Of a DNA stretch of 64,000 nt, positions 3,789 to 52,852 are shown in pieces (the stretch's first letter is position 1; every line of letters begins with the position of its first letter). Below the pieces are notes generated by a model. That model worked only from the letters and a program-made list of their open reading frames with translations. It made no database searches and was not told where the DNA came from. Position numbers and translations under genes: made by a program. Source of the DNA: Bacillota bacterium (GTDB lineage Bacteria > Bacillota > Negativicutes > CTSoil-072); assembly GCA_017889545.1 (NCBI GenBank), contig JAGFZV010000008.1:70874-134873 (forward strand), given 5' to 3'.

Positions 3789-5171
3789 ATGCAGGAAGAT
3801 ACAATTAGTGCGGTTGCTACCGCTGTTGGCGAAGGCGGAATTGGTGTTGTCAGGCTGAGCGGCAAGAACGCGCTAAACGTTGCTGCTCGTTTATTTCAAA
3901 GTTCCACGCAAAAAGACATCGAGCGGTCCATTAAAAGCCAAATTTATTATGGGCATATTGTTGATCCAAAAGACAATTCTTTAGTGGATGAAGTGTTGTT
4001 GCTTGTAATGAAAGCTCCGCATTCTTATACCAGAGAAGATGTAGTTGAAATTCAATGTCATGGCGGTTCGGTTGTGTTGCGTCGTATATTGGGACTGACT
4101 TTGCGATCAGGCGCGCGTTTAGCTGAACCAGGTGAATTTACAAAACGGGCTTTTTTAAACGGACGCCTTGATTTAACGCAGGCAGAAGCGGTTATTGATA
4201 TTATTCGTGCGAAAACGGATGCCTCTTTGAAAATGGCGATCGGGCATTTAGAGGGCGAATTAGCAGGTAAAATTAATCAACTTCGAGGTCGAATTTTAGA
4301 GATGATCGCTCAGCTGGAAGCGACCATTGATTTTCCTGAGGAAAATATTGAGGAATTGCCGGCAGAAAGCGTCAATGCGTCTTTACAAAAAATAGTGGAC
4401 GAAATAGAGTCTCTACTATCCACATCAGCGGCCGGGCGGATTTTGCAGGATGGCTTGCAGACCGTAATTATTGGCAAACCGAATGTCGGAAAATCTAGTT
4501 TGTTGAATGCATTGTTGCGGGAAAATAGGGCAATTGTTACGGATGTTCCGGGAACTACACGTGATAGCATCGAAGAGTTTGTTAATCTTCGCGGGATTCC
4601 GCTTCGCATTGTTGACACTGCCGGCATACGTGATACGAGTGATGAAGTTGAAAAAATTGGCGTTGACCGCAGCCGCGCTTTTGTAGAGAGAGCGGACTTG
4701 GTGTTGGTGCTGTTGGATGCTTCGCAGCCATTATCGCAGGAAGATCACCAAGTTTTGAGTTTGCTGGCGGATCGTAAGGCGATCATATTGATTAATAAAT
4801 CGGATTTACCGGAAAAACTCGTAAGAGATGAATTGGCGGGCTATGTCGGTGAGCGTCAAATTATTACGATTTCTGTTGCCGCCGGTCTCGGATTGGATGT
4901 TTTGGAACAATGCATTGCCGAAATGGTATTTCAGGGAAGTGTGGGTGTAAGCGAAGGCGCATTTATTAATAATGTACGGCAGGAAAATATTTTACGGCTA
5001 GCGTTGCAAAACCTTATGGAGGCAAAAAATACGATTGTCGCCGGCTTACCTGCGGACTTTCAAGTGATTGATTTGCGTAGTGCCTGGGAAAAACTAGGTG
5101 AATTATCGGGCGAAACGGTTAGCGAAGATATTATTAATGAAATCTTTAGTCGCTTTTGTATTGGAAAATGA
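3789..5171 (+). CDS. mnmE: tRNA modification GTPase MnmE
   Basis: 460 aa; G-domain GKPNVGKSSLLNAL, DTAGIR, NKSDL; C-terminal CIGK; synteny. Confidence 0.95.
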   Translation: MQEDTISAVATAVGEGGIGVVRLSGKNALNVAARLFQSSTQKDIERSIKSQIYYGHIVDPKDNSLVDEVLLLVMKAPHSYTREDVVEIQCHGGSVVLRRILGLTLRSGARLAEPGEFTKRAFLNGRLDLTQAEAVIDIIRAKTDASLKMAIGHLEGELAGKINQLRGRILEMIAQLEATIDFPEENIEELPAESVNASLQKIVDEIESLLSTSAAGRILQDGLQTVIIGKPNVGKSSLLNALLRENRAIVTDVPGTTRDSIEEFVNLRGIPLRIVDTAGIRDTSDEVEKIGVDRSRAFVERADLVLVLLDASQPLSQEDHQVLSLLADRKAIILINKSDLPEKLVRDELAGYVGERQIITISVAAGLGLDVLEQCIAEMVFQGSVGVSEGAFINNVRQENILRLALQNLMEAKNTIVAGLPADFQVIDLRSAWEKLGELSGETVSEDIINEIFSRFCIGK

Positions 5172-17757: not shown

Positions 17758-18678
17758 ATGATGAGACCGCGCAAGGCGGATAACCGTGAATATACCTTGA
17801 TGATTGTGCCCCATCAAGGGCAGTCGGTTATCAGTATGAAGATTCCAATTAAAGTGATAAAGGGCATGGCAGTCGCATTAAGCATTTTGATTTTGTTTTT
17901 TATGGGCGCTTTTGCGAATTATCGACATACAATCAACACAGCCAGCGCTGAAAAAGCGGAATTAGAAAGTTTGCGACAAACCAATGGCATGCAGCATCAG
18001 CAAATAGAACAAATTGCAAAAGAAACGGCTGTACTGCAGGAAGACCTGCGCCGGCTAAATCAGCTCGATAATGATGTTCGACGAATGATGAGCATGGAGG
18101 AGCAGCCGGAAGCATCGCGCTCAGGAACCGTAAGACCCAATGGCGCATTCAATGGGCAGGGCGGTCCAACGATTAAACCGGGAATCGATAATCTTGCCAA
18201 TTTGGTTCGGGAGATGCAGGCAAATGCAAAAGAACGGGAAAGTAGTCTTGAGGATCTTCGCGTTCGGATTATTGACCGTAATGCACGAGCAGCAGCTATG
18301 CCTTCAATTTGGCCGGCGAGCGGAGATGTTACTTCCCGCTTTGGCTGGCGATCCTCGCCTTGGGGATGGGGAAGCGATTGGCACCCGGGCATTGATATAG
18401 CAAATGACTATGGAACGCCGATCACCGCAACGGCTGACGGAAGAGTAATGTTTGCCGATTGGTACGGCGGATATGGAAAATTAATACAAATTGACCATGG
18501 GAATGGGATTGTAACTTTATACGGCCATAATTCCACAATGCTTGTTTCTCCAGGACAACAAGTGCGAAAAGGAGATATTATTGCGGAGATGGGAAGTACC
18601 GGCGCTAGCACCGGATCACACTGCCACTACGAAGTGCAAGTTAATGGAACTGCTGTGAACCCAGCTAGTTTTCTGTAA
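17758..18678 (+). CDS. M23 family metallopeptidase with N-terminal TM anchor and coiled-coil
   Basis: C-terminal LytM/M23 motifs HPGIDIA...GHNS...SHCHYEV; N-terminal hydrophobic segment and coiled-coil. Confidence 0.85.
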   Translation: MMRPRKADNREYTLMIVPHQGQSVISMKIPIKVIKGMAVALSILILFFMGAFANYRHTINTASAEKAELESLRQTNGMQHQQIEQIAKETAVLQEDLRRLNQLDNDVRRMMSMEEQPEASRSGTVRPNGAFNGQGGPTIKPGIDNLANLVREMQANAKERESSLEDLRVRIIDRNARAAAMPSIWPASGDVTSRFGWRSSPWGWGSDWHPGIDIANDYGTPITATADGRVMFADWYGGYGKLIQIDHGNGIVTLYGHNSTMLVSPGQQVRKGDIIAEMGSTGASTGSHCHYEVQVNGTAVNPASFL

Positions 18679-18698
18679 GGCTTATTTTAGTTCGGAAG

Positions 18699-18770
18699 GA
18701 AGTATAAAGTAAGACTAAGCTTCAGATGAGGTTAAAACTTCATCTGAAGCTTAGTCGCACTTATTTTAGT
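18699..18770 (-). repeat. Intergenic repeat copy A (modules M1+M2, inverted relative to copy C)
   Basis: gaagtataaagtaagact + hairpin aagcttcagatgagg/ttaaaa/cttcatctgaagctt + agtcgcacttattt; reverse complement matches aaataagtgcgactaaacttcagatgg...ccatctgaagc at 45623-45667. Confidence 0.7.
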
Positions 18771-37755: not shown

Positions 37756-37906
37756 TTGACGATTTTATGCGAATACGGTATAATATAACACATAAGCACA
37801 TACACAACAGGTATGGAACTGGCGGATCAGTGGAAATAACCACATGAACCATATCTGAAAAAGCCGACCGCCTGGGCATAATTTTATGACCCAGGCGGTC
37901 TTTTTA
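37756..37906 (+). ncRNA. Candidate small RNA or attenuator: sigma-A promoter + 115-nt transcript + intrinsic terminator upstream of pflB
   Basis: TTGACG (37756-37761), 17-nt spacer, TATAAT (37779-37784); terminator gaccgcctgggcataattttatgacccaggcggtc + TTTTT (37866-37905); no ORF with SD in between. Confidence 0.4.
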
Positions 37907-37992: not shown

Positions 37993-40221
37993 ATGAGAGA
38001 ATGGAAAAATTTTAGAGGCGGAGTTTGGGAGACAACAATTCAGGTGAGTGATTTTATTCAGCAGAATTATACCCCGTACACAGGTGACGATCAATTTTTA
38101 ACCGGCATCAGCCCCAAAACGCAAACTCTCTGGGAACGCTGCACAGAATTACTGAGCAATGAACGTAAAAAAGGCGGCGTTTTGGCAGTTGATTTCAAGA
38201 CGGTATCGTCTATTACGGCTCATCAGCCGGGCTATATTGATAAAGAACTGGAAGAAATTGTAGGATTGCAGACGGATCAACCATTAAAGCGCAGTGTTAT
38301 TGTAAACGGCGGCATCCGGATGGCGGAGCAGGCTTGCCAGGCATATGGTTATGAACTTGATCCAACAATTAGCGCTATCTATCATAACCATCGAACGACG
38401 CATAATACAGCCGTATTTCATGCTTATACGGAAGAGATGAAGCAAGCCCGACGTTTGGGCATTATTACAGGTCTCCCGGACGCCTATGGGCGTGGCCGTA
38501 TTATTGGAGACTATCGCCGGGTTGCACTATATGGAACAGACCGGCTGATTGTCGGAAAGCAAAATGATTTAAAAGCCTTGGCGAATAAACCGATGAGTGA
38601 AGAAGTCGTCAAGCTGCGCGAAGAAGTAGCGGCTCAAATTTCGGCGTTGGAGGATATGACCAAAATGGCGGCATCCTATGGATGTGCGATTGATCAGCCT
38701 GCTGCCGATGCACAGCAAGCGGTACAATGGGTCTACTTCGGTTATTTGGCAGCGATAAAAGAGCAAAACGGTGCGGCGATGTCCTTGGGCAGGGTCTCGA
38801 CCTTCCTGGATATTTATTTGGAACGTGATTTAGCTGCCGGAAAAATTTCCGAAGAACAAGCACAGGCATTAATCGACCAACTGATCATTAAGTTGCGGCT
38901 GGCACGGCATTTAAGGACTCCTGAATACAACGAATTATATGCCGGCGACCCTTTGTGGGTCACGGAAGCAATTGGCGGGATGGGCTTGGACGGGCGTACC
39001 TTAGTGACTCGCACCTCATACCGTATCCTGCAAACCTTGTACAATTTAGGCCCTGCTCCGGAGCCGAACCTGACGGTGCTATGGTCTGTGAATTTGCCGG
39101 AACAATTCAAGCAATACTGTGCGCAAGTTTCCATCAAGACCAGTGCAATTCAATATGAAAATGACGATATTATGCGTCCGGTCTATGGAGATGATTACGC
39201 AATTGCCTGTTGCGTATCGGCCATGAAAGTCGGCAAACAGATGCAGTTTTTTGGCGCCCGGGCCAATCTTGCAAAAGCGTTGTTATTGGCAATCAACGGC
39301 GGGATCGATGAAAAAAGCGGCGAACAGCTTGGTCCCAAGATGCCGCTTCCACCAGATGGAGCACTGAACTATGAACAAGTACGCGCCAATTATTCTACGG
39401 TTATAGACTGGCTGGCGGGTTTGTATGTGAATACATTGAATTTAATTCATTTCATGCATGACAAATATGCGTACGAAAGAGCCCAAATGGCGCTCCACGA
39501 TACCGAAGTCGAACGGTTAATGGCGTTTGGGGCGGCCGGATTGTCTGTAGCCGCCGATTCTCTCAGCGCGATACGTCATGCAAAAGTGAAACCCGTTCGC
39601 GACGAGCGAGGAATTGCCGTCGATTTTGCCGTAGAAGGCCAATTTCCCTGTTACGGTAACAATGATGAGCGGGTAGACGCGCTGGCCGCTGAGCTAAGCG
39701 CCGAGTTTTCCGACAAACTAAAGCAACATGCAACTTACCGCCAGGCTCGTCACACGCTGTCAATATTGACAATCACCTCGAATGTGATGTATGGCAAAAA
39801 GACCGGCGCAACCCCAGACGGTCGGGCAGCCGGTGAAGCATTTGCCCCAGGCGCCAATCCCATGCATGGGCGCGATAAGAATGGCGCATTGGCAGCGATT
39901 GCCTCCATTACCAATTTATCTTATGATGATTGCCGTGATGGGATTTCCTACACTTTTTCCATTGTGCCCGGTGCATTGGGGAAATCAAATATTGCCCGCG
40001 TTGGCAATTTGACAGCGATGCTGGATGGGTATGCAATACAGGCGGGTCACCATATCAATGTGAATGTTCTTGATCGGGCTGTGCTGAAAGATGCCATGGC
40101 TCATCCGGAAAAATACCCGCAATTGACTATTCGTGTTTCCGGCTATGCAGTTCATTTTACAAAACTGACGCCAACACAACAGGCGGAAGTGCTCAACCGG
40201 ACCTTTTATCAGGCGGTGTAA
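37993..40221 (+). CDS. pflB: Formate C-acetyltransferase (pyruvate formate-lyase, glycyl radical enzyme)
   Basis: 742 aa; C-terminal glycyl-radical motif RVSGYAVHF; adjacent activating enzyme. Confidence 0.9.
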
Positions 40222-40953
40222 ATGATGCGCGGATATTATCATTCCAGAGAAACGTTCGGAACCGTTGACGGAAAAGGGATTCGGTATGTGTTATTTTTGG
40301 CAGGATGTTCTTTAAGCTGTGTTTTTTGTCATAATCCAGATACCTGGCAACGTGGCGGTAAAACCATTACGGTGGAAGAGGTCATGGCTGATGTACTGAA
40401 ATACCAGCATTATTACAAAGCTTCCGGCGGCGGCATCACAGTAAGCGGCGGCGAACCGCTGCTGCAGCCGGAGTTTGTTGCCGCTCTTTTTCAGGAATGC
40501 CGGAAACAAGGGATCCACACCACGCTTGATACGGCCGGGTTTTGCCCGCAAGACAATCTTGAGCAGGTATTGCCGTACACGGATGAGGTATTGTTTTGTC
40601 TAAAAGTGATGGATGAAAAAAAGCATCGCCTGCTGACTGGCGCTGATAACCGTTGCATTCAGTCGAACCTGCGATTGGCAGCGGCGCAGGTTCCGACTGT
40701 CATACGCTATGTCGTGATTCCTGAGATCAATGACGAATCAGCGGATATTCAACAATTGGCCGCTTTTATCGTATCGCTTCCGCAGACGGTATCCGTCGAA
40801 TTACTCGGATATCACATTATGGGAAAGAGAAAATGGGAGGATCTCGGAATTCCGTATCGGCTTTCGTCTGTTCCTCCCGCAAATCAAAAGCATTTGGAAG
40901 CGGTATATCATTGGCTTGCAAAGAAAGAAATCGACGTTCAACCAATGCAATAG
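40222..40953 (+). CDS. pflA: Pyruvate formate-lyase activating enzyme (radical SAM)
   Basis: 243 aa; radical-SAM cluster motif CSLSCVFCHNPD; follows pflB. Confidence 0.9.
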   Translation: MMRGYYHSRETFGTVDGKGIRYVLFLAGCSLSCVFCHNPDTWQRGGKTITVEEVMADVLKYQHYYKASGGGITVSGGEPLLQPEFVAALFQECRKQGIHTTLDTAGFCPQDNLEQVLPYTDEVLFCLKVMDEKKHRLLTGADNRCIQSNLRLAAAQVPTVIRYVVIPEINDESADIQQLAAFIVSLPQTVSVELLGYHIMGKRKWEDLGIPYRLSSVPPANQKHLEAVYHWLAKKEIDVQPMQ

Positions 40954-41072
40954 AGAGTAACAAGAAATGGTCTTGCCGGCAAAATTGGGCGATTTCAAAG
41001 CAAAAACTACACGCCAGAGACGATATCTGTTATAATAGCTATACGTGAATTTTTCTTGAAGGTGGCGTGGAT

Positions 41073-42182
41073 ATGAGTACAAGTCTCGAAGTAGGGATTG
41101 TCGGTCTTCCGAATGTCGGTAAAAGCACACTATTTAATGCAATAACCAAGGCTGGAGCAGAAGCGGCCAATTATCCTTTTTGTACAATTGAACCCAATGT
41201 AGGCGTAGTGGAAGTTCCCGATGAACGCCTGGCTCGTTTGGCTGAAATATACAAGTCTAAAAAAATTATCCCAGCAACAATGCGGTTTGTGGATATTGCC
41301 GGGTTGGTAAAAGGCGCTTCCTGTGGAGAAGGCTTGGGCAATAAATTTTTATCCCATATTCGCGAAGTCGATGCTGTAGCACAGGTCGTTCGTTGCTTTT
41401 CAGACGAAAACGTAACTCATGTAGAAGGATCACTTGATCCGTTACGGGACATTGAGATTATCAATACGGAGCTATGCTTGGCAGATCTGGATACGTTGCA
41501 GAAACGGTTCGACCGCTTAAAAAAGATGCTGAAAGGCGGCGACAAGAAGGCGATCGAAGCGGAACTCGATCTTTTGGAAAGAATTAAAGTTTTGCTCGAA
41601 CAGGCGTTGCCGGCACGGCGTGTCGAGATGACGCCGGAAGAAGCGGTATTGATCCGCGACCTTAATCTGCTAACCCTCAAGCCGGCGTTATTTATTGCTA
41701 ATGTCAGCGAAGAAGAAGCGGCAGATTCTTCAGCAAATCCCCATGTTCAGGCAATCCGGGAGTATGCCGCCCAAGAGGGAGCGGAAGTGATTGTGGTCTC
41801 GGCAAAAGTAGAATCAGAGATTGCAGAGCTGACAGAAGAAGAAGCAAAAGAATTTTTACAGGAAATGGGCCTGGAAGAGTCCGGCTTGGATAAATTAATC
41901 AGGTCGAGTTTTAAACTATTAGGGTTGATGACTTTTTTGACAGCCGGGGAACAGGAAGTACGTGCATGGACAATTCGCCGGGAAACGAAGGCGCCGCAAG
42001 CAGCCGGCAAAATTCACAGCGATATTGAGCGTGGTTTTATCAGGGCTGAAATTGTTTCTTTCGCCGACTTGACTGCGTGCGGGAGCTTGAATGCAGCACG
42101 CGAAAAAGGCTTAGTCCGTCTGGAAGGCAAAGAATACATCATGCAGGATGGCGATGTGACTAATTTCCGCTTTAATGTCTAA
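41073..42182 (+). CDS. ychF: Redox-regulated ATPase YchF (Obg-family GTPase)
   Basis: [22 protein letters not shown]; C-terminal TGS domain; ATG 41073 with SD AAGGTGG. Confidence 0.9.
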
Positions 42183-42224
42183 CTCGAAAAAGTTACAATA
42201 GATCAATAATTTGGTGAAAAACAA

Positions 42225-42254
42225 TTGACAAGTGTATACTTGCGAGACTATAAT
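42225..42254 (+). promoter_or_regulatory. Sigma-A promoter of the aroF-pheA leader
   Basis: TTGACA (42225-42230), 18-nt spacer, TATAAT (42249-42254). Confidence 0.6.
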
Positions 42255-42289
42255 TACATCATCATCAGGTAAGGTTAGGTGTTCACGAT

Positions 42290-42448
42290 ATGAATAACAT
42301 CAAACAAGTTTGCCAACTGAATACAGTTTCTGTGTTTAACTTTTTTAGCCAAGGCTGGTTTTTTAGCGTTGGTTATTTTGCGTTTACATGGAAAACTGAA
42401 TATGGCGCAAATTTTTTGAAGTTCCTCCGTGTGGATCCTTTAACATGA
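42290..42448 (+). CDS. Putative aromatic-rich leader peptide (52 aa) of the aroF-pheA operon
   Basis: ATG 42290 preceded by SD AGGTG; MNNIKQVCQLNTVSVFNFFSQGWFFSVGYFAFTWKTEYGANFLKFLRVDPLT: 9 Phe, 2 Trp, 2 Tyr; stop TGA 42446-42448; terminator follows. Confidence 0.45.
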   Translation: MNNIKQVCQLNTVSVFNFFSQGWFFSVGYFAFTWKTEYGANFLKFLRVDPLT

Positions 42449-42477
42449 TCATTACGTAATATGAATGACATACAAGG

Positions 42478-42516
42478 CGAGGTTCTTTGGAAAAAGAACT
42501 TCGTCTTTTCTTTTGG
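42478..42516 (+). terminator. Attenuator-type intrinsic terminator in the aroF leader
   Basis: cgaggttcttt / ggaa / aaagaacttcg stem followed by TCTTTTCTTTTGG; 30 nt downstream of the leader ORF stop. Confidence 0.6.
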
Positions 42517-42608
42517 TCTTATAGAAAGTATAAATACTTTCTATGACATAAGCGCAACCAGCGGCGTATGCCGTCGCTAAAAGCTCGGCACAAGCCGGGT
42601 TTTCTAAT
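42517..42608 (+). repeat. Intergenic repeat copy B (modules M1+M3) immediately upstream of aroF
   Basis: Palindrome atagaaagtataaatactttctat (42521-42544) + acataagcgcaaccagcggcgtatgccgtcgctaaaagctcggcacaagccgggttttctaat (42546-42608), near-identical to 45687-45751. Confidence 0.7.
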
Positions 42609-42637
42609 ATCGAAAAAAATTTTAAAGGAGGATTATT

Positions 42638-43639
42638 ATGTTAGTCGTTATGAAACCCGGCGCGCCGCAAAGCGAGGTAGACAAAATGTATACGAGGTTG
42701 ATGCAAACGGGAACGGAAGTTTCGGTCATTGAAGGAACGCAGCAGAGTGTGTTCGCGTTGGTAGGAGATACGAGCAAAATAGAGGTCGGCACTTACGCTG
42801 CAAACCAGCATGTCGAAAAAATTATGCGTGTACAGCAACCGTATAAGATGGCCAGCCGGATTTTTCAGCCCCAAGATACGGTTGTTGAAATCGGCAGCTG
42901 CAAAGTTGGCGGTGGTCACAAGGCTGTGATTGCCGGGCCCTGCTCTGTTGAAAGCATTGAGCAAATGGTTCAGACCGCGATCCTGGTGAAGCAATACGGA
43001 GCAACGATGCTGCGTGGAGGCGCATACAAGCCCCGGTCATCTCCCTATAGTTTTCAGGGAACAGGAGAAGAAGGGTTGCAAATGTTGGTGAAGGCCAGAG
43101 AAGCCACCGGCCTGCCGTTTGTTACGGAAGTGATGAGCGTGGAAACGTTTGACCTAATTGAAGATTGTGCTGACCTCATACAAATTGGAACCAGAAATAT
43201 GCAAAATTTCCCACTATTAAAGCGAGCGGGCAAAAGCTCAAAGCCGATCCTTTTAAAACGCGGGATGAGTGCAACGTTGGAAGAATTTTTGATGGCGGCG
43301 GAATATATTATCGCCGGCGGAAATCGGCAAGTTATTTTGTGCGAACGCGGTATCCGGACGTTTGATAATTATACGCGCAACACGTTGGATCTTAGTGTTA
43401 TCCCGGCGATCAAAGAAGTGAGCCATCTGCCGATTATTGTTGATCCAAGCCATGCATGCGGCAAATGGTCAATGGTTGAACCGCTTGCCAAAGCGGCTAT
43501 GGCGGTTGGAGCCGATGGACTGATTATTGAAGTTCACCATCAGCCGGAAAAAGCGCTTTGTGACGGAGCGCAATCTCTCAAGCCAGAGAAATTCGGAAAA
43601 TTGATGACTTCCGTACAGCGAATTATGGAAGCGGTATAA
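42638..43639 (+). CDS. aroF: 3-deoxy-7-phosphoheptulonate (DAHP) synthase, type I-beta with N-terminal regulatory domain
   Basis: 333 aa; N-terminal ferredoxin-like regulatory domain, then KDO8P/DAHP synthase TIM barrel (...[11 protein letters not shown]..., ...IVDPSHA...). Confidence 0.85.
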
Positions 43640-43677
43640 GTTAAAAGAAACGCACAGGCATGAGATTGGGGATATTT

Positions 43678-44559
43678 ATGAAAATAGGATATTTAGGACC
43701 TGTTGGAACTTACAGTTATGAAGCTGCTTGCTTATATGCCGAGAGCCTGGATGGAAAATTTGATTGCGTTGCATTGCCGAACTTTCTTGCCATTATCGAC
43801 GGCGTCGAAAAAAAAACGATTGATAGAGGGATTATTCCAGTGGAGAACTCGACGCATGGAGCGGTTGCAACTGCAATGGATACATTGCTTCATGTTCGCA
43901 AAAGTAAAGTTTGCGGTGAAATAACATTAAAAATTGAACATTGTTTGTTGGGGCGTGCGAAAAAGATGGAAGAGATCCGATGTGTTTATTCGCACGAACA
44001 AGCATTGGAGCAATGCAGTCAATTTTTTTACAAAACGAATCCTCACATGGAAATCATTTATTGTGCCAGTACTTCGCAAGCCTGTGCACTGGCATTGAAA
44101 AATGGCAGTGCATATGGCGCAGTAGCCAGTAAATCAGCAGCCCAGCGTTACAATCTTACTATATTAGCGCAAAAAATCCAGGACAATCCCTTCAATCAGA
44201 CTCGCTTTTTAATCATCGGCGATGCATCTCCGGGAATTACGGGTTTCGATAAAACGTCGATTATTTTGGCTTTCTCCGATGACCGTCCCGGAAGCCTATA
44301 CGGTGTTCTCCGCTCTTTTGCTAGCAGAGGGATTAATCTGACACGGATCGAATCCCGGCCGGCAAAACATAATGTTGGCCAGTACATCTTTTATATCGAC
44401 TTTCAGGGACATCAGCACGAAGATAAGGGACATGACGTACTAATTGAGTTGGAAACACAAGTCAGCTGTCTGAAGGTGCTAGGGTCCTATCCAATGGACA
44501 ATTGGCAAAAGCAAAAAACAGGAAGTGCGAATGATCGCTTGGAGAAATCCTCATTTTGA
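43678..44559 (+). CDS. pheA: Prephenate dehydratase (PDT + ACT domains)
   Basis: PDT domain with TRF and ESRP motifs, C-terminal ACT; ATG 43678 (track start 43660 is extension). Confidence 0.85.
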   Translation: MKIGYLGPVGTYSYEAACLYAESLDGKFDCVALPNFLAIIDGVEKKTIDRGIIPVENSTHGAVATAMDTLLHVRKSKVCGEITLKIEHCLLGRAKKMEEIRCVYSHEQALEQCSQFFYKTNPHMEIIYCASTSQACALALKNGSAYGAVASKSAAQRYNLTILAQKIQDNPFNQTRFLIIGDASPGITGFDKTSIILAFSDDRPGSLYGVLRSFASRGINLTRIESRPAKHNVGQYIFYIDFQGHQHEDKGHDVLIELETQVSCLKVLGSYPMDNWQKQKTGSANDRLEKSSF

Positions 44560-44598
44560 GATATAATTGGGTTATTCTGTAGTCGAATGAGGAAAACA

Positions 44599-45483
44599 AT
44601 GATAAAAGACAACAAGAGCCTGGTATATTTTGTGATGATTTTTGTGACGTTTATCTGGGGTGTGAATATGCCGATTATGAAAATCGGATTGCTTTATCTT
44701 CCGCCCATGCCGTATAATGCTGCCAGAATGCTGTGCGCTTTGGTTGCAACACTACTGTTTACAGTCATTACGAAAAGTTATCGGCCGCTTGACCGGAAGG
44801 ATATCAAAACAATTTTATTGGTCAGTATTGGCGGTTTTTTTGTCTTTCAGTTATTTCTTACCGCCGGCGTCCAAAAAACGACTGCTGGGAATGGTTCATT
44901 AATCATGGCCTTGCTGCCTGTTAGTGTGGCGATAATCAATAAGATTTGCAAAATTGAAGAGATTTCGCGGTTTGCAATGGCTGGAATTATTTGTTCTTTA
45001 CTGGGTATTGTTTTAATTGTGGCGGGATCCAGCAAAGAAATCAGCTTTGCTGATGAACATATCTATGGCGCGCTTCTCCTTTTGGGGGCACAGGCAAGTT
45101 ACGGATATTATACGGTTTTTTCAAAGGATTTGTTACAGAAATATTCTACTTATCAGATCACAATGTACATTGTTTTGATTTCGACGGCATTGTTTTGTCT
45201 GACGGCCTGGCCCAGCATTGCTGCAACAAGTTGGCGAGAAGTCCCATTGGCAGCTTGGGGCAGCATTCTTTATTCCGGTGTGTTTGCTCTATGCATCTGT
45301 AATTTTTTGTGGATTTGGAGCGTGGGGAAGGCAGGAAGCATAAAAGCTTCCATCTATAATAATCTTTCGCCGATATTTGCGATTATTGGCGGTTATTTGT
45401 TATTAGGCGAAACGTTTAGCTTACTCCAGTTTTTTGGCGCAGCAATTATTTTCTTAGGAATATATCTAGCCCGAAAAAAGTAA
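44599..45483 (+). CDS. EamA/DMT family transporter
   Basis: About 10 TM helices, two EamA-like repeats. Confidence 0.8.
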   Translation: MIKDNKSLVYFVMIFVTFIWGVNMPIMKIGLLYLPPMPYNAARMLCALVATLLFTVITKSYRPLDRKDIKTILLVSIGGFFVFQLFLTAGVQKTTAGNGSLIMALLPVSVAIINKICKIEEISRFAMAGIICSLLGIVLIVAGSSKEISFADEHIYGALLLLGAQASYGYYTVFSKDLLQKYSTYQITMYIVLISTALFCLTAWPSIAATSWREVPLAAWGSILYSGVFALCICNFLWIWSVGKAGSIKASIYNNLSPIFAIIGGYLLLGETFSLLQFFGAAIIFLGIYLARKK

Positions 45484-45490
45484 AACAAAA

Positions 45491-45540
45491 GCAAAACCGC
45501 GAGAGCATATCAATAGGATGCTCTCGCGGTTTTGCTTTTG
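45491..45540. terminator. Bidirectional intrinsic terminator after eamA
   Basis: aaaaccgcgagagcat / loop / atgctctcgcggtttt followed by GCTTTTG. Confidence 0.8.
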
Positions 45541-45544
45541 TTTA

Positions 45545-45751
45545 GTACACCAGAAAGTATAAATTTTCCTCTACGCACAGACTGTAAGATCCCTTACGAA
45601 GGGATCAACAGTCTGTAACTCGAAATAAGTGCGACTAAACTTCAGATGGCGGTAACCATCTGAAGCAAGCCTTCTATATCTGGTGTACATAAGTGCAACC
45701 AGCGGCTTCCGCCATCGCTATAAAAGCTCGGCGCAAGCCGGGTTTTCTAAT
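45545..45751 (+). repeat. Composite intergenic repeat copy C (10-bp inverted ends, M1, 40-nt palindrome, M2 hairpin, M3 with terminator-like hairpin)
   Basis: GTACACCAGA (45545-45554) and TCTGGTGTAC (45679-45688); palindrome acagactgtaagatcccttacgaagggatcaacagtctgt (45577-45616); M2 hairpin cttcagatgg/cggtaa/ccatctgaag (45640-45665); M3 45687-45751. Confidence 0.7.
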
Positions 45752-45768
45752 GAGAAGTATTTTGCGAA

Positions 45769-46701
45769 TCAACGCTCTTCGCGGTCATATGGAAGACCAA
45801 GCGCTCCGGGTGCCGTTAAGCGTCCGTGCTGACGAATCATAACAAATACTAAAACCAGGATAGTAAATAAATAGGGCAGCATGTTTAAGAAAAAAGGAGA
45901 AACAGTTACGCCGGAAACCTGGAGGTGAAAGCCAAGCGCATCAATTCCGCCGAACAAATAAGAGCCGACTAATGCCCGCCAAGGGTTCCAAAGCGCAAAA
46001 ATCACTAGTGCCACAGCAATCCAGCCTCGGCCTGCGGTCATGTTCTCCAACCAGCTTGGCGCATATGCCAGCGATAAATAAGCGCCGCCGACGCCGCACA
46101 GCATTCCGCCAAGGACAATGTACAAATACCGCAAGGCAAAAACGTTACTGCCAAGAGAATCTGCGGCTGCGGGATTCTCGCCCAATGCCCGCAAAAATAA
46201 CCCGGGCCGTGTACGGTATAAAAACAACCAGAGAAAAACAACCAGGCCATAACTTGCATAGACTAAAATATCATGCCGGAACAATACAGGCCCTAGAACT
46301 GGAATATCCGTTAGAAAACCAAGCGGCTGGATAGTGAATGGACTGGGAACGGGGATCCCAATATACGATTTTCCCAGATAGCCGCTCAAACCAGTCCCAA
46401 ACAAGGTAAGCGCCAAACCGCTGACCACTTGATTTGCCCGCAGGGTAACTGTTAATACTGCATGAATTAATGCAATTGCTCCTCCGGCAAACATTGCGGC
46501 GGCTAAGCCGAACCAACTATTGCCGGTCACTACCGCAATAATGAAACCGCTTACAGCTCCAATCAGCATGATTCCCTCTACCCCGAGGTTTAGAATTCCG
46601 GCTCGTTCTGTTAATAGTTCACCGAGCGCTGCGTACAAAATTGGTGTGCCGGCAGTGATAGCGGCAGCTAAAATAGAAATAACCAGAGTGGAGTCACTCA
46701 C
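45769..46701 (-). CDS. ABC transporter permease (BMP/nucleoside-type system)
   Basis: 310 aa multi-TM permease; last gene of a four-gene minus-strand operon. Confidence 0.85.
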   Translation of the reverse strand: MSDSTLVISILAAAITAGTPILYAALGELLTERAGILNLGVEGIMLIGAVSGFIIAVVTGNSWFGLAAAMFAGGAIALIHAVLTVTLRANQVVSGLALTLFGTGLSGYLGKSYIGIPVPSPFTIQPLGFLTDIPVLGPVLFRHDILVYASYGLVVFLWLFLYRTRPGLFLRALGENPAAADSLGSNVFALRYLYIVLGGMLCGVGGAYLSLAYAPSWLENMTAGRGWIAVALVIFALWNPWRALVGSYLFGGIDALGFHLQVSGVTVSPFFLNMLPYLFTILVLVFVMIRQHGRLTAPGALGLPYDREER

Positions 46702-47788
46702 GATCAGAACGACCTCCTTTACAACCCGTGTAAGAAATCCGATAGCGGGTTAAAATTTCTGCTCCGATTACAAAAAACAAGATAGATCCTTGAATCATGG
46801 AAGCGACTGCAGCCGGCACACCAAGGGTCTGGACCATATAGCCCCCAACCTGTAATGCACCAAAAAGGAAAGACATAATAACGATTGCGAGAGGATTGAG
46901 TTGTCCCAACCAAGCAATGATAATTCCGGTATAACCGTAGCCAGGGCTTAATCCGGGTTGAAGGCGGCCGATAATACCACTGACTTCCGTCATGCCGGCC
47001 AGTCCGCAAATGGCGCCGCTGAGAAGCATTGCCAAGCAAATGTTGCGAGTGATATTCATCCCCGCATAGCGGGCGGCCTTGGGACTCGAGCCAATGACTT
47101 TCAATTCGTATCCCCAGCGGGAATTATTGAACAGCACATAAAGGAAGGCAACAATTGCCAGTGCCAATAGTAAACCAATATGAATGCGAGATGTGCCCCA
47201 AAAAGGCAAGATTGCTGCATCGGGAAATTGGGCGGTTAAGGGAAAATTAAGACCTTTCGGATCGCGCCAGGGACCGTAAACGAGGTAGCTAACCCAGAGA
47301 ATACCAATATAATTCAGCATCAAAGTTGTTATGATCTCATTCACTTGCCAGCGAGCACGCAGAATGCCAGGGACAAAAGCCCACAGGGCGCCGCCAGCCA
47401 TGCCGAGACAGACCATTAGCGGCAGCATGACCCAAGCTGGTAAAGCAGGGAACGTAAGCGGCAGCCAAGTAGCGGCAAGTGCTCCCACGTATAATTGGCC
47501 TTCGGCGCCAATATTCCAAAGCTGCATGCGAAAAGCGACAGAAATACCGAGTCCGCATAACATCAGGGGAATCGCTTTAACAATCGTTTCGGATAAGCCA
47601 TAAGTGGATCCCAGCGCTCCGCTGATCATCGCAACGTAAATTTCGACAGGATCCCGTCCGGTTATGAGTAAAAAAACGCCGCAAAAAAGCAGAGATAATA
47701 AAAGAGCGATGCAAGGAACCGCCAACAGCATGAACTTGGATGGAGTTAGTCTTTTTTCCCAGCTAAATGGCATTTGGTTCACCTCCAT
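46694..47788 (-). CDS. ABC transporter permease (BMP/nucleoside-type system)
   Basis: 364 aa multi-TM permease; overlaps neighbours. Confidence 0.85.
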   Translation of the reverse strand: MEVNQMPFSWEKRLTPSKFMLLAVPCIALLLSLLFCGVFLLITGRDPVEIYVAMISGALGSTYGLSETIVKAIPLMLCGLGISVAFRMQLWNIGAEGQLYVGALAATWLPLTFPALPAWVMLPLMVCLGMAGGALWAFVPGILRARWQVNEIITTLMLNYIGILWVSYLVYGPWRDPKGLNFPLTAQFPDAAILPFWGTSRIHIGLLLALAIVAFLYVLFNNSRWGYELKVIGSSPKAARYAGMNITRNICLAMLLSGAICGLAGMTEVSGIIGRLQPGLSPGYGYTGIIIAWLGQLNPLAIVIMSFLFGALQVGGYMVQTLGVPAAVASMIQGSILFFVIGAEILTRYRISYTGCKGGRSDRE

Positions 47789-49298
47789 TTGTTTGGCCGG
47801 AACCTGCCATCAATAGGCCCAATTCGTCAAGATCGACTTCATTGGCCGGAAATTCACCTGCCAGGCGGCCGTCGAACAAAACGCCAATTCGGTCGGAAAG
47901 AGCCACCAGTTCATCGAGGTCTTCAGAAATCAGTAAAATGGCAGTATGGTTGGCTTTCAAATCTAACAGCAGTTGGTGGATATCATTTGTTGCGCCGATA
48001 TCCAAGCCCCGGGCAGGATACACAACAATCATCAAGCGGGGAATGGTCGCAATTTCCCGCGCCAAAAGTAATCGCTGTAAATTTCCGCCGGATAAAATTT
48101 TGACCGGTTGATGAAGGCTGGGTGTTTTGACATTATATTTTTCGACGAGTGCAGCGGCATTTTCTTCAATCGCCTTTGCATGAAGCAGCCATCGGCCCGA
48201 ATATTTGGGCTGCTGATAATTTTTCAACAATAAGTTTTCTATAATCGTTAAGTCCGGGACCAAACCCATTCCCAAACGGTCTTCCGGAACATAGCTGACG
48301 CCTTGATCCAGTATGGCAGAAGGGTTTAAATTTGTAATATCCTCGCCATGCAGGTGAATCGAACCTTTTTCTATATGGCGGAGTCCACAAATTGCTTCAG
48401 CCAGCTCGCGTTGCCCATTCCCAGTTACACCAGCCAAACCAAGAATCTCTCCTTCTCGCAGCGAAAGCGATAAGGCACGCAAGCCAAGACGGCCCATATC
48501 ATTGAGGACTTCGATCTGATCGACGTTTAATACGACTGGTCCAAGTTCAGTTTGTATTGGTTTCGAACGGCCGGCTAGATCGCGGCCGACCATTAGCTGC
48601 ACAAGTTGGTTGGGATTCAATTGGCTGCGTTCCATGCTGCCGGTTACTCGTCCTGCACGCAGGACCGTGACCCGATCAGCCAATTCCATTACTTCATTTA
48701 ATTTATGGGTAATAAAAATCACAGCACAGCCTTGCTCGGTCATTCGCCGCAAATTGCTGAATAACTCAGCCGTTTCCGGCGGAGTGAGAACCGCTGTCGG
48801 TTCGTCCATGATTAAAAGGCGGGAGCCTTGGTAAAGAATCCGCAAGATTTCTACCCGCTGTTTTTCGCCGACGGATAATTGCCAGACGTAAGCATTCGGA
48901 TTGACATGCAAACCGTATTTCGCTCCGAAACCGATAATTTCTTGCTTGATTTTTTCGGTTGATAGCCAAAAATCACCATTCTTTGCTCCCATGGTGATAT
49001 TTTCTGCGACAGTAAACGGCTCCACCAGCTTAAAATGTTGATGAATCATGCCGATGCCGCAGGCAATAGCATCACGGGGGGAACCGAATTTATGCTCTTC
49101 GCCGTCAATGATGATCCGTCCTGCGTTGGGCTGGTACAATCCATCCAGTACCGACATCAAAGTGCTTTTTCCGGATCCGTTTTCGCCTAGAAGGGCATGA
49201 ATTTCCCCGGGATAAATGGTCAGGTCAACCTGATCATTGGCAATTACGCCCGGGAAGCGTTTCACTATGCCTTGCATTTGAATAAAAGGTGTTGCCAT
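47763..49298 (-). CDS. ABC transporter ATP-binding protein with duplicated ATPase domains
   Basis: 511 aa; two Walker A motifs (GENGSGKST, GVTGNGQRE) and two ABC domains. Confidence 0.9.
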   Translation of the reverse strand: MATPFIQMQGIVKRFPGVIANDQVDLTIYPGEIHALLGENGSGKSTLMSVLDGLYQPNAGRIIIDGEEHKFGSPRDAIACGIGMIHQHFKLVEPFTVAENITMGAKNGDFWLSTEKIKQEIIGFGAKYGLHVNPNAYVWQLSVGEKQRVEILRILYQGSRLLIMDEPTAVLTPPETAELFSNLRRMTEQGCAVIFITHKLNEVMELADRVTVLRAGRVTGSMERSQLNPNQLVQLMVGRDLAGRSKPIQTELGPVVLNVDQIEVLNDMGRLGLRALSLSLREGEILGLAGVTGNGQRELAEAICGLRHIEKGSIHLHGEDITNLNPSAILDQGVSYVPEDRLGMGLVPDLTIIENLLLKNYQQPKYSGRWLLHAKAIEENAAALVEKYNVKTPSLHQPVKILSGGNLQRLLLAREIATIPRLMIVVYPARGLDIGATNDIHQLLLDLKANHTAILLISEDLDELVALSDRIGVLFDGRLAGEFPANEVDLDELGLLMAGSGQTNGGEPNAI

Positions 49299-49326
49299 TG
49301 TTTCCTCCAGTGTGCTTGAAATCGGG

Positions 49327-49376
49327 TTAAAAAATTAAAAAGAGAGCGACGGCAGGCGTATGCCTGCCTGCTCTCT
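49327..49376 (-). terminator. Intercistronic stem-loop between binding-protein and ATPase genes
   Basis: gagagcaggcaggcatacgcctgccgtcgctctc hairpin followed on the minus strand by a T-rich run. Confidence 0.5.
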
Positions 49377-49408
49377 GCAACCTCTGCAACGTAGGTAGGG
49401 ATAAAAAA

Positions 49409-50512
49409 CTATTTTGCAATCGTTCCTTCTACACCTTCCACAAACCAGTTAAACTGCAGCATATCTTGGTCGGACATTTTTGTACCTTCAGCAATTCGTA
49501 TTGCGCCGGATTGATCTTTTATCGGGCCGGTGAAAACATCCCATTGCCCGCTCAGGATTTTTTGTTTGGCGTCTTCAACAGCTTTTTTTGTTTCTTCAGT
49601 TACCATCGGTCCATATGGCGCTAAGCCGACGATGTTGTCTTTCATTGGGCCCCAGTACTGCTCAGATTTCCAAGTGCCTTTCTTCACAGCATCAACGACA
49701 TTGACATAATAAGGTCCCCAGTTCCAGACGGCAGAAGTCAAAACAGCTTTTGGCGCCATTTTGCTCATATCGGTATTATAGCCGATGCTAAACTTTCCAC
49801 GTTCTTCAGCGGCTTGCTGCGGCCCCGGAGTATCCTGGTGCTGTGCGATGACATCAGCACCGGCATCAAGCAAACTAAGTCCGGCTTGTTTTTCTTTTGC
49901 CGGATCATACCAGGTATTGGTCCAAATCACTTTTACTTTTGCATCCGGGTTTACAGAACGCACGCCAAGAGTGAAGGCGTTAATTCCGCGGATTACTTCC
50001 GGAATAGGATGTGCGGCAACGTAGCCGATTACATTCGATTTTGTCGCTTTACCGGCAACAATCCCGGAAAGGTACCGTGCTTGATAGATACGGCCAAAGT
50101 AGGTGCCAACGTTCGGTGCCGTTTTAAATCCGGAACAGTGCATGAATACAACATTGGGATATTTTTTGGAAACATTAATTGTTGGGTCCATATAGCCGAA
50201 ACTGGTGGTGAAAATAATTTTGTGGCCCTGTTCGGCAAGCTGCGTAATAACGCGCTCGGAATCAGCGCCTTCAGGGACGGATTCAATGATTGTCGTTTGG
50301 ACATCCGGCATTTTTTCCATTAAATATTTCCGGCCTTGATCATGTGCATAGGACCAACCGGCATCACCGACCGGACCAACATACACGAAAGCTACTTTTG
50401 TTTTTTCTGCTGCCGGCGCAGATGTTTTTTTGTCTGTGCCGCCGCAACCGGCCAGCAACAGAGCGGTTGACAGCAAACCAACCAGCATGACGAGCAGGTA
50501 CTTACTTTTCAT
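49409..50512 (-). CDS. BMP family ABC transporter substrate-binding lipoprotein
   Basis: Lipoprotein signal ...LLVMLVGLLSTALLLAGCGG; start 50512 preferred (track start 50539 also possible). Confidence 0.85.
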   Translation of the reverse strand: MKSKYLLVMLVGLLSTALLLAGCGGTDKKTSAPAAEKTKVAFVYVGPVGDAGWSYAHDQGRKYLMEKMPDVQTTIIESVPEGADSERVITQLAEQGHKIIFTTSFGYMDPTINVSKKYPNVVFMHCSGFKTAPNVGTYFGRIYQARYLSGIVAGKATKSNVIGYVAAHPIPEVIRGINAFTLGVRSVNPDAKVKVIWTNTWYDPAKEKQAGLSLLDAGADVIAQHQDTPGPQQAAEERGKFSIGYNTDMSKMAPKAVLTSAVWNWGPYYVNVVDAVKKGTWKSEQYWGPMKDNIVGLAPYGPMVTEETKKAVEDAKQKILSGQWDVFTGPIKDQSGAIRIAEGTKMSDQDMLQFNWFVEGVEGTIAK

Positions 50513-50713
50513 TATCGTCATTACCCTCCTAAGTTTCATTTTTTAAAACGCATTAATAAGCATGTATTCCATCTTATCTTGTTATTTACCTGCCAAAAAG
50601 GATGAAATTTTCGATAAAAACAGCGATTTTTACGAAGAAAAATTCAAAAAAAACTGGCTCAGGCATTTTGCGCAGAACCAGCGAAGCGATAGGTTATCAT
50701 CTTTTACTACAAG

Positions 50714-51562
50714 TCACACACTTAAAATGATATTATCGATTAAACGTGTTTTTCCAAAGCGAACCGCCAGAGCCAGCAATGCTTTGTTCGCCAGCACGTC
50801 AGTTGCTTGTAAATCCGGATACTGATAAATTTCAACATAATCAATTTCTGCTTTAGGCTCAGACTGGATTTTATTTCGCACCATGTCCCGAATTGCGGCA
50901 ATGTTACGCTCGCCGGCTTTTACAGCATGATCAGCCAATCGCATGCTTTGGGCAAGAACCAGCGCTGCCTGGATTTCTTCCGGCGATAAATAGGCGTTGC
51001 GCGAGCTAAGCGCCAGACCATTCGCGTCACGGACGGTCGGAACCATAACAATCTGAATATCCATGTTCAAATCAGCGGTCATTCGCTGAATAACCAGACA
51101 TTGCTGGGCATCTTTTTGGCCAAAGAATGCAGTGTCCGGCTGCACAATATTAAATAATTTGGTGACGACGGTGGCAACACCCTGAAAATGTCCTGGACGG
51201 GATTGTCCGCAAAGTTTATCGGTAATTCCGCTCACATTTACATAGGTTGAATAACCAGGCGGATACATCTCGGAAGGCTGCGGATGAAAAATGGCATCCA
51301 CGCCAACTCCTTGTGCCAGACGGCAATCATTTTCGAATTTGCGGGGATAAGCGGCAAAGTCTTCGTTTGGGCCAAACTGCGTGGGATTAACAAAGATGCT
51401 TGCAACCACAACGTCACAGACGGCCTTTGCTTCCCGCATTAACGTAAGATGACCTTCATGCAGGGCGCCCATTGTTGGGACCAGTCCGATCTTCTTGCCG
51501 GCAAACCGGGCTTCTTTAATGTAAGCGCGCATGACATCAATCGTTTCAATGACTTTGATCAT
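50714..51562 (-). CDS. panC: Pantoate--beta-alanine ligase
   Basis: MIKVIETIDVMRAYIKEAR...GLVPTMGALHEGHLTLM (HIGH-type motif); ATG 51562 with SD AAAGGAG. Confidence 0.9.
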   Translation of the reverse strand: MIKVIETIDVMRAYIKEARFAGKKIGLVPTMGALHEGHLTLMREAKAVCDVVVASIFVNPTQFGPNEDFAAYPRKFENDCRLAQGVGVDAIFHPQPSEMYPPGYSTYVNVSGITDKLCGQSRPGHFQGVATVVTKLFNIVQPDTAFFGQKDAQQCLVIQRMTADLNMDIQIVMVPTVRDANGLALSSRNAYLSPEEIQAALVLAQSMRLADHAVKAGERNIAAIRDMVRNKIQSEPKAEIDYVEIYQYPDLQATDVLANKALLALAVRFGKTRLIDNIILSV

Positions 51563-51573
51563 AATGGCTCCTT

Positions 51574-52456
51574 TCATTTTCCCAGTGTAATGGATAGGTC
51601 CATAGCTTGTTGCTCAGTGATGGAGGCTTTCTCAAGCGCAATTTGGAGTGTATATAAACCAAGAACTTTATACAATTCCGTTTCACCGTTGTTGAATTCA
51701 GATAACGCTTTAAAATGGCCTTCAATTGTCGGGAGATCACCGCGGCTGATCGGTCCGGTCAATGCATCCGGCAGCCCGACTTTTTGCAAATTGGCGAGAG
51801 TTCCCTGAATTAAAGGCGCTAACGCGTGCAAGGCATTTGTAGAAGACAGTCCGAATTTTTCATACATTTTTGCTGCGCAATAGGTCAGAGAAACCAAATA
51901 ATTTGAAGCCACACAAGCTGCTGCATGATAGAGCGCCCGGTCTTTGGCGGGGACAAAAAAGCTATGCCCGCCTAAAACGGCGATAATTTTCTGGCCGCAA
52001 GCGATTGCTTGTTCATCACCGTCCAGCGCAAAGTAGGAACCGGGAAGATTTGTCTTTGCCGTTTCAATATCCGCAAAGGACTGCAATGGATGGATTGACC
52101 CGGTAAAGGCGCCAAGAAGCTGTGCCGGCTTAAGAACTTCGGCAGACATGGATCCGCAGGTATGAAAGACAGATTGTTCCGGGCGAAAACCGCCACCCGC
52201 GGCAATCGCCGAGACAACTTCACCGATGAAACGATCCGGCACGGTAAGAAAGACCAGATCAGCGTCAAGCGTGACAGCTTCAGGCGAGACAGCTGCAATG
52301 GCTCCAGGAAACTGGTCCGCCAGACGGGATGCGGATTGCTGTGTCCGGCTGGCAATTCCGGTGATTGGATATCCTCGGCAATAAAGCAGCGTTGCCAAAG
52401 CACTGCCAACTTTGCCTGCGCCAATGATGGCAATAGAAGGTTTTTTCAGACGTCAT
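51574..52456 (-). CDS. DUF2520 Rossmann-fold oxidoreductase-like protein (possible ketopantoate reductase); apparent frameshift or non-AUG start near N-terminus
   Basis: Main frame encodes ...KKPSIAIIGAGKVGSALATLLYCRGYP... with C-terminal DUF2520-like domain; ATG 52456 with SD GGAGGG is in +1 frame and merges only if the A6 run 52441-52446 is read as A5. Confidence 0.6.
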
Positions 52457-52492
52457 CCCTCCTCTTGCAGGGAACCGTCGACTGCTGGAAGT

Positions 52493-52523
52493 AAAAAAGC
52501 CTTTCGGACAAAATCCGAAAGGC
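52493..52523 (-). terminator. Terminator-like hairpin in the 5' leader of the DUF2520-panC operon
   Basis: Minus strand: gcctttcgg/attttgt/ccgaaaggc followed by TTTTTT, about 40 nt upstream of the SD. Confidence 0.45.
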
Positions 52524-52852
52524 AGGGGAATCCCTTCAAGCCCTTCCGTCTCAGTCACTTCGGATCCAAGCGGATAAAAAATTTCCAGATTACCATATGA
52601 TCAGATATGGCGTACCGTACATTGTGCAGCTCGCATGGATGCCGCCAAAATACACCAATATCAGCCTAAAAGTAACATGGGTAAAGTATTTTGTCAATAC
52701 AATCGCGAAAGATCAGAAAAAAATTTGCATTTTCTTTTCTGATGGTGCTATAATAATTAAGTCTAGGACAACATTATAGGTTTCAAATTTCGGTTTGTGA
52801 ACCTTCCCTGCCCCGCTTGAGGGGCCATTAGTCCAGAGGAGGAGGTGATTTC

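Follow-up and report, generated by a model that had tools for sequence, protein, structure and literature searches.

A segment of 206 nt at positions 45545–45750 of the window, by which we mean the whole 64,000-nt stretch of DNA analysed here, is a real insertion relative to the close relative L097. This segment, which we call copy C, is a member of a composite subfamily and not a one-off. We put at roughly 0.7 the probability that copy C is an inserted composite of a family of terminator-docked hairpin repeats, undescribed in Rfam and in the literature searched, non-autonomous and probably moved in trans. Copy C is found in a metagenome-assembled genome of the Negativicutes (Sporomusaceae-like), whose G+C content is 45.6%.

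An insertion and its exact ends

The segment sits in a 285-nt spacer between eamA, a DMT/EamA transporter gene (44587–45483, plus strand), and the last permease gene of an ABC/Bmp transporter operon (45769–46701, minus strand). An intrinsic terminator, shared with the convergent permease gene, starts directly at the eamA stop codon. Its hairpin, with perfect 26-nt arms (45483–45508 and 45518–45543), and its T-rich tail occupy 45483–45544 of the plus strand. The ORFs and the terminator arms bear out the preliminary description, which had placed the segment between convergent genes and directly behind the eamA terminator. This terminator is kept in L097; it is the docking site and lies outside the element. 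The neighbouring genes are housekeeping genes and, as had been remarked, none of them encodes a transposase. The segment itself contains no ORF.

If the segment has been inserted, what does the site look like without it? In four relatives the spacer downstream of eamA measures 65, 79, 78 and 72 nt, as against 285 nt here. The JGI contig L097, at ~87% nucleotide identity, is collinear with window positions 39480–52701 (13 kb), and the BLAST blocks between the two are interrupted at two places only, 42517/42615 and 45544/45750. The empty site of L097 reads ...GCTATTGTTT^ATGAGAAG (TTGTTT^ATGAG). Aligned with it, the filled site of the window reads ...GCTTTTGTTT-A[GTACACC...GGGTTTTCTA]ATGAGAAG. 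Exactly 206 nt are absent from L097, with a 1-nt ambiguity (the A) at the junction, and the comparison of relatives that the preliminary description had proposed thus yields an empty site. At the single-base resolution of this alignment copy C has no target-site duplication, in agreement with that description; nor has copy B, a second unit of the window to which we return below.

The empty site also redraws the anatomy. The preliminary description had taken a 10-bp inverted repeat (GTACACCAGA, 45545–45554, and its exact reverse complement TCTGGTGTAC, 45679–45688) for the ends of a MITE-like element at 45545–45688, with module M3 outside the right end. It had placed the repeat, a 40-nt palindrome and the M2 hairpin correctly, and the hairpin of M3 does lie near the permease stop codon, some 19–25 nt away. 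The boundaries, on the other hand, are different. By the empty site of L097 the element ends on the right at 45750, 62 nt beyond the right arm of the repeat, and includes M3; family homology in loci L018, L082, L092 and L095 likewise extends to 45749–45751. The element in fact starts with GTACACC... and finishes with ...TTTTCTAA, which do not form an inverted repeat; what had been read as inverted ends is an internal stem, P1. We therefore retain a non-autonomous insertion, as the short spacers of the relatives and the missing ORF indicate, and abandon both the proposed anatomy and the MITE-like type.

Copy C is also where two independent assemblies of the same species stop, one (L001, ending at 4857) in the M2 hairpin and the other (L003, ending at 3064) in the palindrome. 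Such endings are expected, because multicopy sequence breaks assemblies.

Architecture of the unit

The basic unit of the family is ~95 nt long. It opens with a hairpin, P1, continues with ATAAGTGCAACC and another hairpin, P2, and closes with P3, a terminator-like hairpin that ends in TTTTCTAA. The 5′ part of a canonical example reads GTACACCAGA-AAGTATAACATTTTA-TCTGGTGTAC / ATAAGTGCAACC, and its 3′ part AGCGGC-TTCCGCC-GTCGCT / AAAAAG / CTCGGC-GCAA-GCCGGG / TTTTCTAA. The P1 arms of canonical members are only 15 nt apart and P2–P3 always follow. Across the family the unit ranges from 92 to 206 nt, and P1 begins with GTAC, GTCC or GTCT.

Copy C follows this plan on the plus strand, with ~110 extra nt in the P1 loop. 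The 5′ arm of P1 (GTACACCAGA, 45545–45554) is overlapped at its end by the motif AGAAAGTATAAAT (45552–45564), which runs into the start of the loop, has exact copies at 42523 and 45552 and is kept by almost every member of the family, whatever the taxon; in the basic unit the motif conserved at the start of the loop is AGAAAGTATAA. Two modules are nested in the loop. One is the palindrome (45577–45616), a hairpin of the form ACAGNCTGT...ACAGNCTGT whose perfect arms of 9 bp and 8 bp are separated by an AA/AA mismatch and which forms in the minimum-energy fold. The other is M2 (45625–45678), comprising a leader (ATAAGTGCGAC, 45625–45635), a 10-bp hairpin (45640–45665, with arms at 45640–45649 and 45656–45665) and a tail. 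The 3′ arm of P1 (TCTGGTGTAC, 45679–45688) is followed by the single-stranded leader ATAAGTGCAACC (45689–45700), largely invariant in the alignment, and by P2, AGCGGC-TTCCGCC-ATCGCT (45701–45719), which is ~85% paired, an alternative tetraloop pairing being equally supported. P3, AGCTCGGC-GCAA-GCCGGGTT and then TTCTAA (45725–45750), forms the right end of the element. The sequence ATAAGYGCRAC heads both M2 and M3, occurring four times in the window where 0.09 occurrences are expected, and resembles the P1-loop motif AAAGTATAAC.

In the predicted fold of the composite, two hairpins are enclosed by P1; z is −7.2 for the plus strand and −8.3 for the minus strand. P1 is variable and AT-rich, while P3 is GC-rich with a GCAA loop; P2 and P3 are alike, but both stand at the right end. 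A consensus scan of the unit detected no sigma-70 promoter, the TATAA of the P1 loop being without a usable −35 element.

Covariation in the P1 stem

Is the 10-bp repeat more than a coincidence? Within the whole 64-kb window the 10-mer has exact matches at those two places only. By a rough estimate the chance of one 10-bp inverted repeat per ~200 nt is ~0.02, which is only mildly unlikely. What makes us count the repeat as real is that dozens of related copies contain it in the form of a conserved hairpin. The stem sequences vary between copies, even in one genome, yet stay complementary; examples are GTCCATCAGA/TCTGATGGAC, GCACATCAG/CTGATGTGC, GTAGATAAGA/TCTTATCTAC and TACTATC/GATAGTA. Because the arms vary in this way while remaining complementary, the repeat is unlike the terminal inverted repeats that a transposase binds. 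The expectation of further copies holds in that the family is multicopy and includes four other composites.

A covariance model was built from 17 copies, and 52 hits were aligned to it. Among the 49 distinct copies both members of each of the 10 P1 pairs vary, with compensation, and the cells are paired in 94%. The covariation score of P1 is 0.278; shuffling gives 0.112, and sliding the partner columns gives no more than 0.053. An alignment to a covariance model is biased towards the modelled structure; the compensations in P1 are nonetheless plain in the raw sequences. RNAalifold, applied to a plain MAFFT alignment, recovers P3 alone. It misses P1 because the P1 subfamilies are out of register, and an alignment to the covariance model is needed.

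Which strand do the pairs favour? The wobble pairs of P1 show no strand bias (14 G–T, 11 A–C). Those of P2 favour the plus strand, with 45 G–T against 26 A–C mismatches; both registers of P2 are ~85% paired and neither is preferred. In P3 two fixed G–T pairs favour folding of the plus strand, its bases being partly fixed by the scan pattern: the loci were selected by an exact P3 pattern, and the invariance of P3 is in part an artefact of this.

At L095 (2057–2276) a composite copy carries P1 arms that do not match, GTCCATCAGA with TCTGGTGTAC. Subfamilies may have recombined here, or composites may be under a looser demand for pairing. Inspection by eye disclosed no link between P1 sequence and flanking sequence of the kind that a guide-like role would produce.

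Insertion sites, arrays and copy B

What distinguishes the sites at which the units are found? Sufficient flanking sequence was available for 47 copies, and 35 of these follow a stable hairpin with a T-run at a distance of a few bases. The left flank has T at 65–86% over positions −8 to −2, and then A (57%) or G (24%); this flank is T-rich and shows no fixed word of 4–5 nt. A crude ORF call gives the upstream gene the orientation of the unit in 42 of 54 cases.

Units also occur in head-to-tail arrays of two or three (L036 1570–1803, L039, L026/L028, L033 and L060), whose junctions, for example GGGTTTTCTAA|GTCCATC, set the ends of the unit independently of the empty site. Tandem arrays would be expected if the P3 and T-run of a unit themselves re-create a docking site. 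When the flanking ORFs of 70 loci were clustered, no function shared among the neighbouring genes was apparent.

Copy B (42516–42607, plus strand; 82 bits with the covariance model) is of canonical length, with a short P1, ATAGAAAGTAT/ATACTTTCTAT. It lies directly after the terminator of a DAHP-synthase operon leader. L097 lacks it, window positions 42518–42614 being missing there (the blocks break at 42517/42615), and it is present at the equivalent place in the more distant CAYUNV genome (L075). Either L097 has therefore undergone a precise loss, or the same site has been occupied repeatedly. Since copy B is inside the leader, transcription must read through it if the operon is to be expressed.

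The leader has features of its own. A consensus promoter, TTGACA-17-TATAAT (42226–42256), stands upstream of the DAHP-synthase/prephenate-dehydratase operon and is followed by a 52-codon ORF rich in Phe, Trp and Tyr (42290–42448, MNNIKQVCQLNTVSVFNFFSQGWFFSVGYFAFTWKTEYGANFLKF...) and by a hairpin with a T-run at about 42465–42514. The 52-codon peptide is conserved in L097 and L075, and the region has no Rfam match. Positions 42226–42514 look like a leader-peptide attenuator for aromatic amino acids.

Members and modules in other genomes

The core of M3 (P3), CTCGGCNCAAGCCGGGTTTTCT, was sought in 185,579 species-representative genomes, which yielded 70 loci. About 38 of these are in one related Negativicutes genome, CAYUNV (EamA identity 77%), and about 10 in a Veillonellaceae genome; the remainder are in Sporomusa malonica, Desulfosporosinus, Desulfitobacterium, Syntrophomonas, a Peptococcaceae genome and Caproiciproducens. 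Most of the 70 loci show the ~95-nt unit in register, and the covariance model found full units there. Near-identical copies stand at many unrelated loci within one genome. In the 64-kb window only two full units were seen. BLAST against plasmids returned one divergent copy, on pSPTER of Sporomusa termitida (NZ_CP036260.1, ~18162–18247; L076 3995–4080; 37.8 bits), between an AraC regulator gene and an iron ABC transporter operon and at a position that bears no annotation. The same search against annotated phages gave no match.

The composite architecture, 201–207 nt long, recurs at L018, L082, L092 and L095, where it is 85–93% identical to copy C and has unrelated flanks. L018, in CAYUNV, lies between a dynamin-like GTPase gene and icd; the other three are metagenome contigs. 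A weaker BLAST hit (85%) suggests a second, candidate composite copy in L082.

The modules are also met apart from this arrangement. Variants of the palindrome are found in L012, L024, L044, L018, L082, L088, L092 and L095; in the first three of these they are placed between P2 and P3, and L088 has the palindrome and M2 without P1 arms or P2–P3. Expansions of ~75–125 nt in the P2 loop or the P2–P3 gap were seen at L026 1029–1198, L028 5975–6144, L065 847–1018 and L044 3903–4122. Beyond the P1 loop, then, there are further defined positions, several in all, at which the family tolerates or accumulates inserts.

M2 was matched in 20 metagenome loci. In the window a stand-alone M2-type hairpin unit (18692–18759, no strand assigned) stands between M23 peptidase and bactofilin genes; it is present as well in the 89%-identical relative L099, which hence offers no empty site there. 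An exact 11-nt direct repeat, CTTATTTTAGT, flanks this unit at 18681–18691 and 18760–18770 and is not conserved in L099. A different repeat of ~130 nt that shares M2, TTATCCGATGACTAACTCGCTCTAAG...GGATAAGTGCGACTAAGCTTCAGATGGAG...CTTACTTTAT, occurs on metagenome contigs from bioreactor organisms (L077–L081, L083–L087, L089–L091, L093, L094 and L096). In front of tuf, pyrB, cinA and other genes it precedes the ribosome-binding site by 10–30 nt and seems to lie within the 5′ UTR; no Rfam family matches it.

Comparison with known repeats

How does the unit compare with the repeats already described in bacteria? REP/BIME and REPIN–RAYT systems are similar in several respects: they are short, extragenic, structured hairpins in many copies, mosaic in their modules and often at the 3′ ends of genes, without classic terminal inverted repeats or target-site duplications, and are mobilised in trans. 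A REP, however, is an imperfect palindrome of 20–40 nt with a GTAG or CGTC head. The present units, of ~92–206 nt, have three distinct hairpins and conserved single-stranded motifs, lack either head, dock after the T-run of a terminator, and reside in Firmicutes; no RAYT was found in the fetched loci. The palindrome-associated elements (PATEs) derived from IS200/IS605 elements also have asymmetric hairpin ends, no terminal inverted repeats, no target duplication, precise presence or absence and a strand-specific orientation, without a gene of their own. But in IS200/IS605 the left and right hairpins are similar and stand some bases in from the ends, and the target is a fixed tetra- or pentanucleotide, whereas P1 and P3 are dissimilar, P1 starts at base 1, the left flank is T-rich and no TnpA was found in the fetched loci. 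In its junctions the unit is like an IS200/IS605 derivative; in its hairpins it is not.

Class C group II introns insert just after the stem-loops of intrinsic terminators, in the sense orientation and without target duplication, as the units do. The units, on the other hand, are about ten times smaller and have neither ribozyme domains I–VI nor a reverse transcriptase; no Rfam intron model matches them even at an E-value of 10. The bcr1 repeats of the Bacillus cereus group and BOX and RUP of pneumococcus are likewise intergenic, ~100–200 nt long, stably folded by prediction and located in transcribed regions, and BOX is modular as well. Bcr1 and RUP carry target duplications, TTTAT and TA respectively, and we know of no terminator docking by bcr1, BOX or RUP; it is by their descriptions, not by sequence, that the present units are set apart from these three. 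Classic MITEs with terminal inverted repeats share the small size, the absence of coding capacity, the multiple copies and the non-autonomy, and differ in their inverted ends and target-site duplications. By its defining features, then, the unit is not a MITE of that type, a REP element or a group II intron. We place it among the small non-autonomous bacterial repeats, its mechanism being a matter of inference.

Nature of the unit

What, then, is the unit? That copy C is a classic MITE of 45545–45688, with 10-bp ends recognised by a DDE transposase and M3 as a separate flank, is scarcely credible. Such an element would explain the perfect 10-bp inverted repeat and the small, multicopy sequence without an ORF. 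It does not explain a right boundary at 45750 with M3 inside, the lack of a target-site duplication, canonical arms a mere 15 nt apart and always followed by P2–P3, arms that differ between copies of one genome while staying complementary, or the arms of L095 that mismatch each other. Nor does it seem at all probable that the unit is an RNA-mediated (retro-)element which uses host retroelement machinery and homes to terminators in the manner of class C group II introns. Sense insertion just behind terminator hairpins without target duplication is what these introns do, and the terminator with which the unit closes would set the 3′ end of an RNA. Yet 95–206 nt is far below the size of a group II ribozyme, Rfam gives no intron match, no reverse transcriptase gene recurs in the loci, and no series of 5′-truncated copies was noticed in an unsystematic look at the loci.

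A functional structured RNA deserves more consideration, although we think it unlikely to be what the unit primarily is. The unit would be either a cis-acting 3′ UTR, terminator or leader or a small RNA gene, its copies kept by selection and its spread secondary or recombinational. The covariation of P1, the G–U pairs on the sense strand of P2 and P3, the resemblance of P3 with its U-run to an intrinsic terminator and the co-orientation of units with upstream genes all fit such an RNA, as do the persistence of copy B in the DAHP-synthase operon leader of two species, the related M2-containing repeats in the 5′ UTRs of tuf, pyrB and cinA, and the variable-length expansions of the P1 and P2 loops, which many structured RNAs display. 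Against it stand the clean gain or loss at two sites between genomes 87% identical, the near-identical copies at many unrelated loci of one genome and the tandem arrays, neighbouring genes without a common function, the lack of an Rfam match, and wobble pairs in P1 that show no strand bias. A non-autonomous mobile element that targets terminators is most likely, and its mode of movement is something that we infer. This reading has difficulties of its own: no mobilising enzyme was found in the fetched loci, and movement by the IS200/IS605 route has to contend with a P1 unlike P3, a P1 that starts at the first base and a left flank that is T-rich without a fixed word. The wobble pairs of P1, which favour neither strand, tell against movement as a folded single strand as well.

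How might such an element move? The unit may do so as a folded single strand, the shape of P1 and P3 being recognised by an enzyme encoded elsewhere. The best available analogy would be a peel-and-paste transposase of the HUH/Y1 type (IS200/IS605, REP–RAYT); for the choice of site, class C group II introns may be the nearest model. Docking behind a terminator would provide a safe site, and the inserted unit would add a second, partly bidirectional terminator or an RNA 3′ structure. The retention of copy B in a 5′ leader in two species could mean that the unit has a role as RNA rather than being merely selfish. A role of this kind is compatible with mobility and does not exclude it.

The search for the enzyme covered the fetched loci. 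A transposase with matching ends, which had been envisaged elsewhere in the genome, did not emerge from these: clustering of the ORFs flanking the 70 loci revealed no recurrent transposase-like ORF. For ~75 right ends a left-end motif was sought at distances above 250 nt, where a long autonomous version would have it, and none was found. A weak search, by phmmer with an IS608 TnpA query, gave no Y1 match in 790 kb of fetched loci. With Rfam 15 no relevant family was found for copy C, a canonical copy or the M2-type repeats, permissive scans giving weak chance matches. A literature search by keyword and by literal sequence, which took in a survey of REP elements (PMC3733652) and a Term-seq study of Sporomusa (PMC12456013), found no description of the unit.

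We suggest tentatively, at less than even odds, that the family may represent an undescribed mobile class, present in at least two classes of Firmicutes, which homes to intrinsic terminators by DNA or RNA shape, depends for its movement on an enzyme that has still to be connected with it, and has hairpin modules that nest into composites like copy C. Its enzyme could treat the units as a new type of substrate for HUH/Y1 transposases, or could work by another mechanism.

If our reading is confirmed, the Negativicutes and several Clostridia contain a widespread, unannotated repeat family. These repeats would break metagenome assemblies of Negativicutes and would add terminator-like hairpins at gene ends and in 5′ leaders, where the units could be misannotated as native terminators or small RNA genes. 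The pairs of filled and empty sites would serve the study of terminator-targeting transposition without target duplication. Divergent copies are present in cultivated Sporomusa (pSPTER of S. termitida, and S. malonica), and the question is therefore open to experiment.

Other RNA motifs of the window

An Rfam scan of the window at gathering thresholds reported only two motifs, both away from copy C. A ZTP riboswitch (37805–37884) precedes the genes for a glycyl-radical (PFL-like) enzyme and the activase of that enzyme, and a pan motif (52542–52648) precedes the pantoate-ligase operon. Both score above the Rfam thresholds, and both are known families in their expected contexts.
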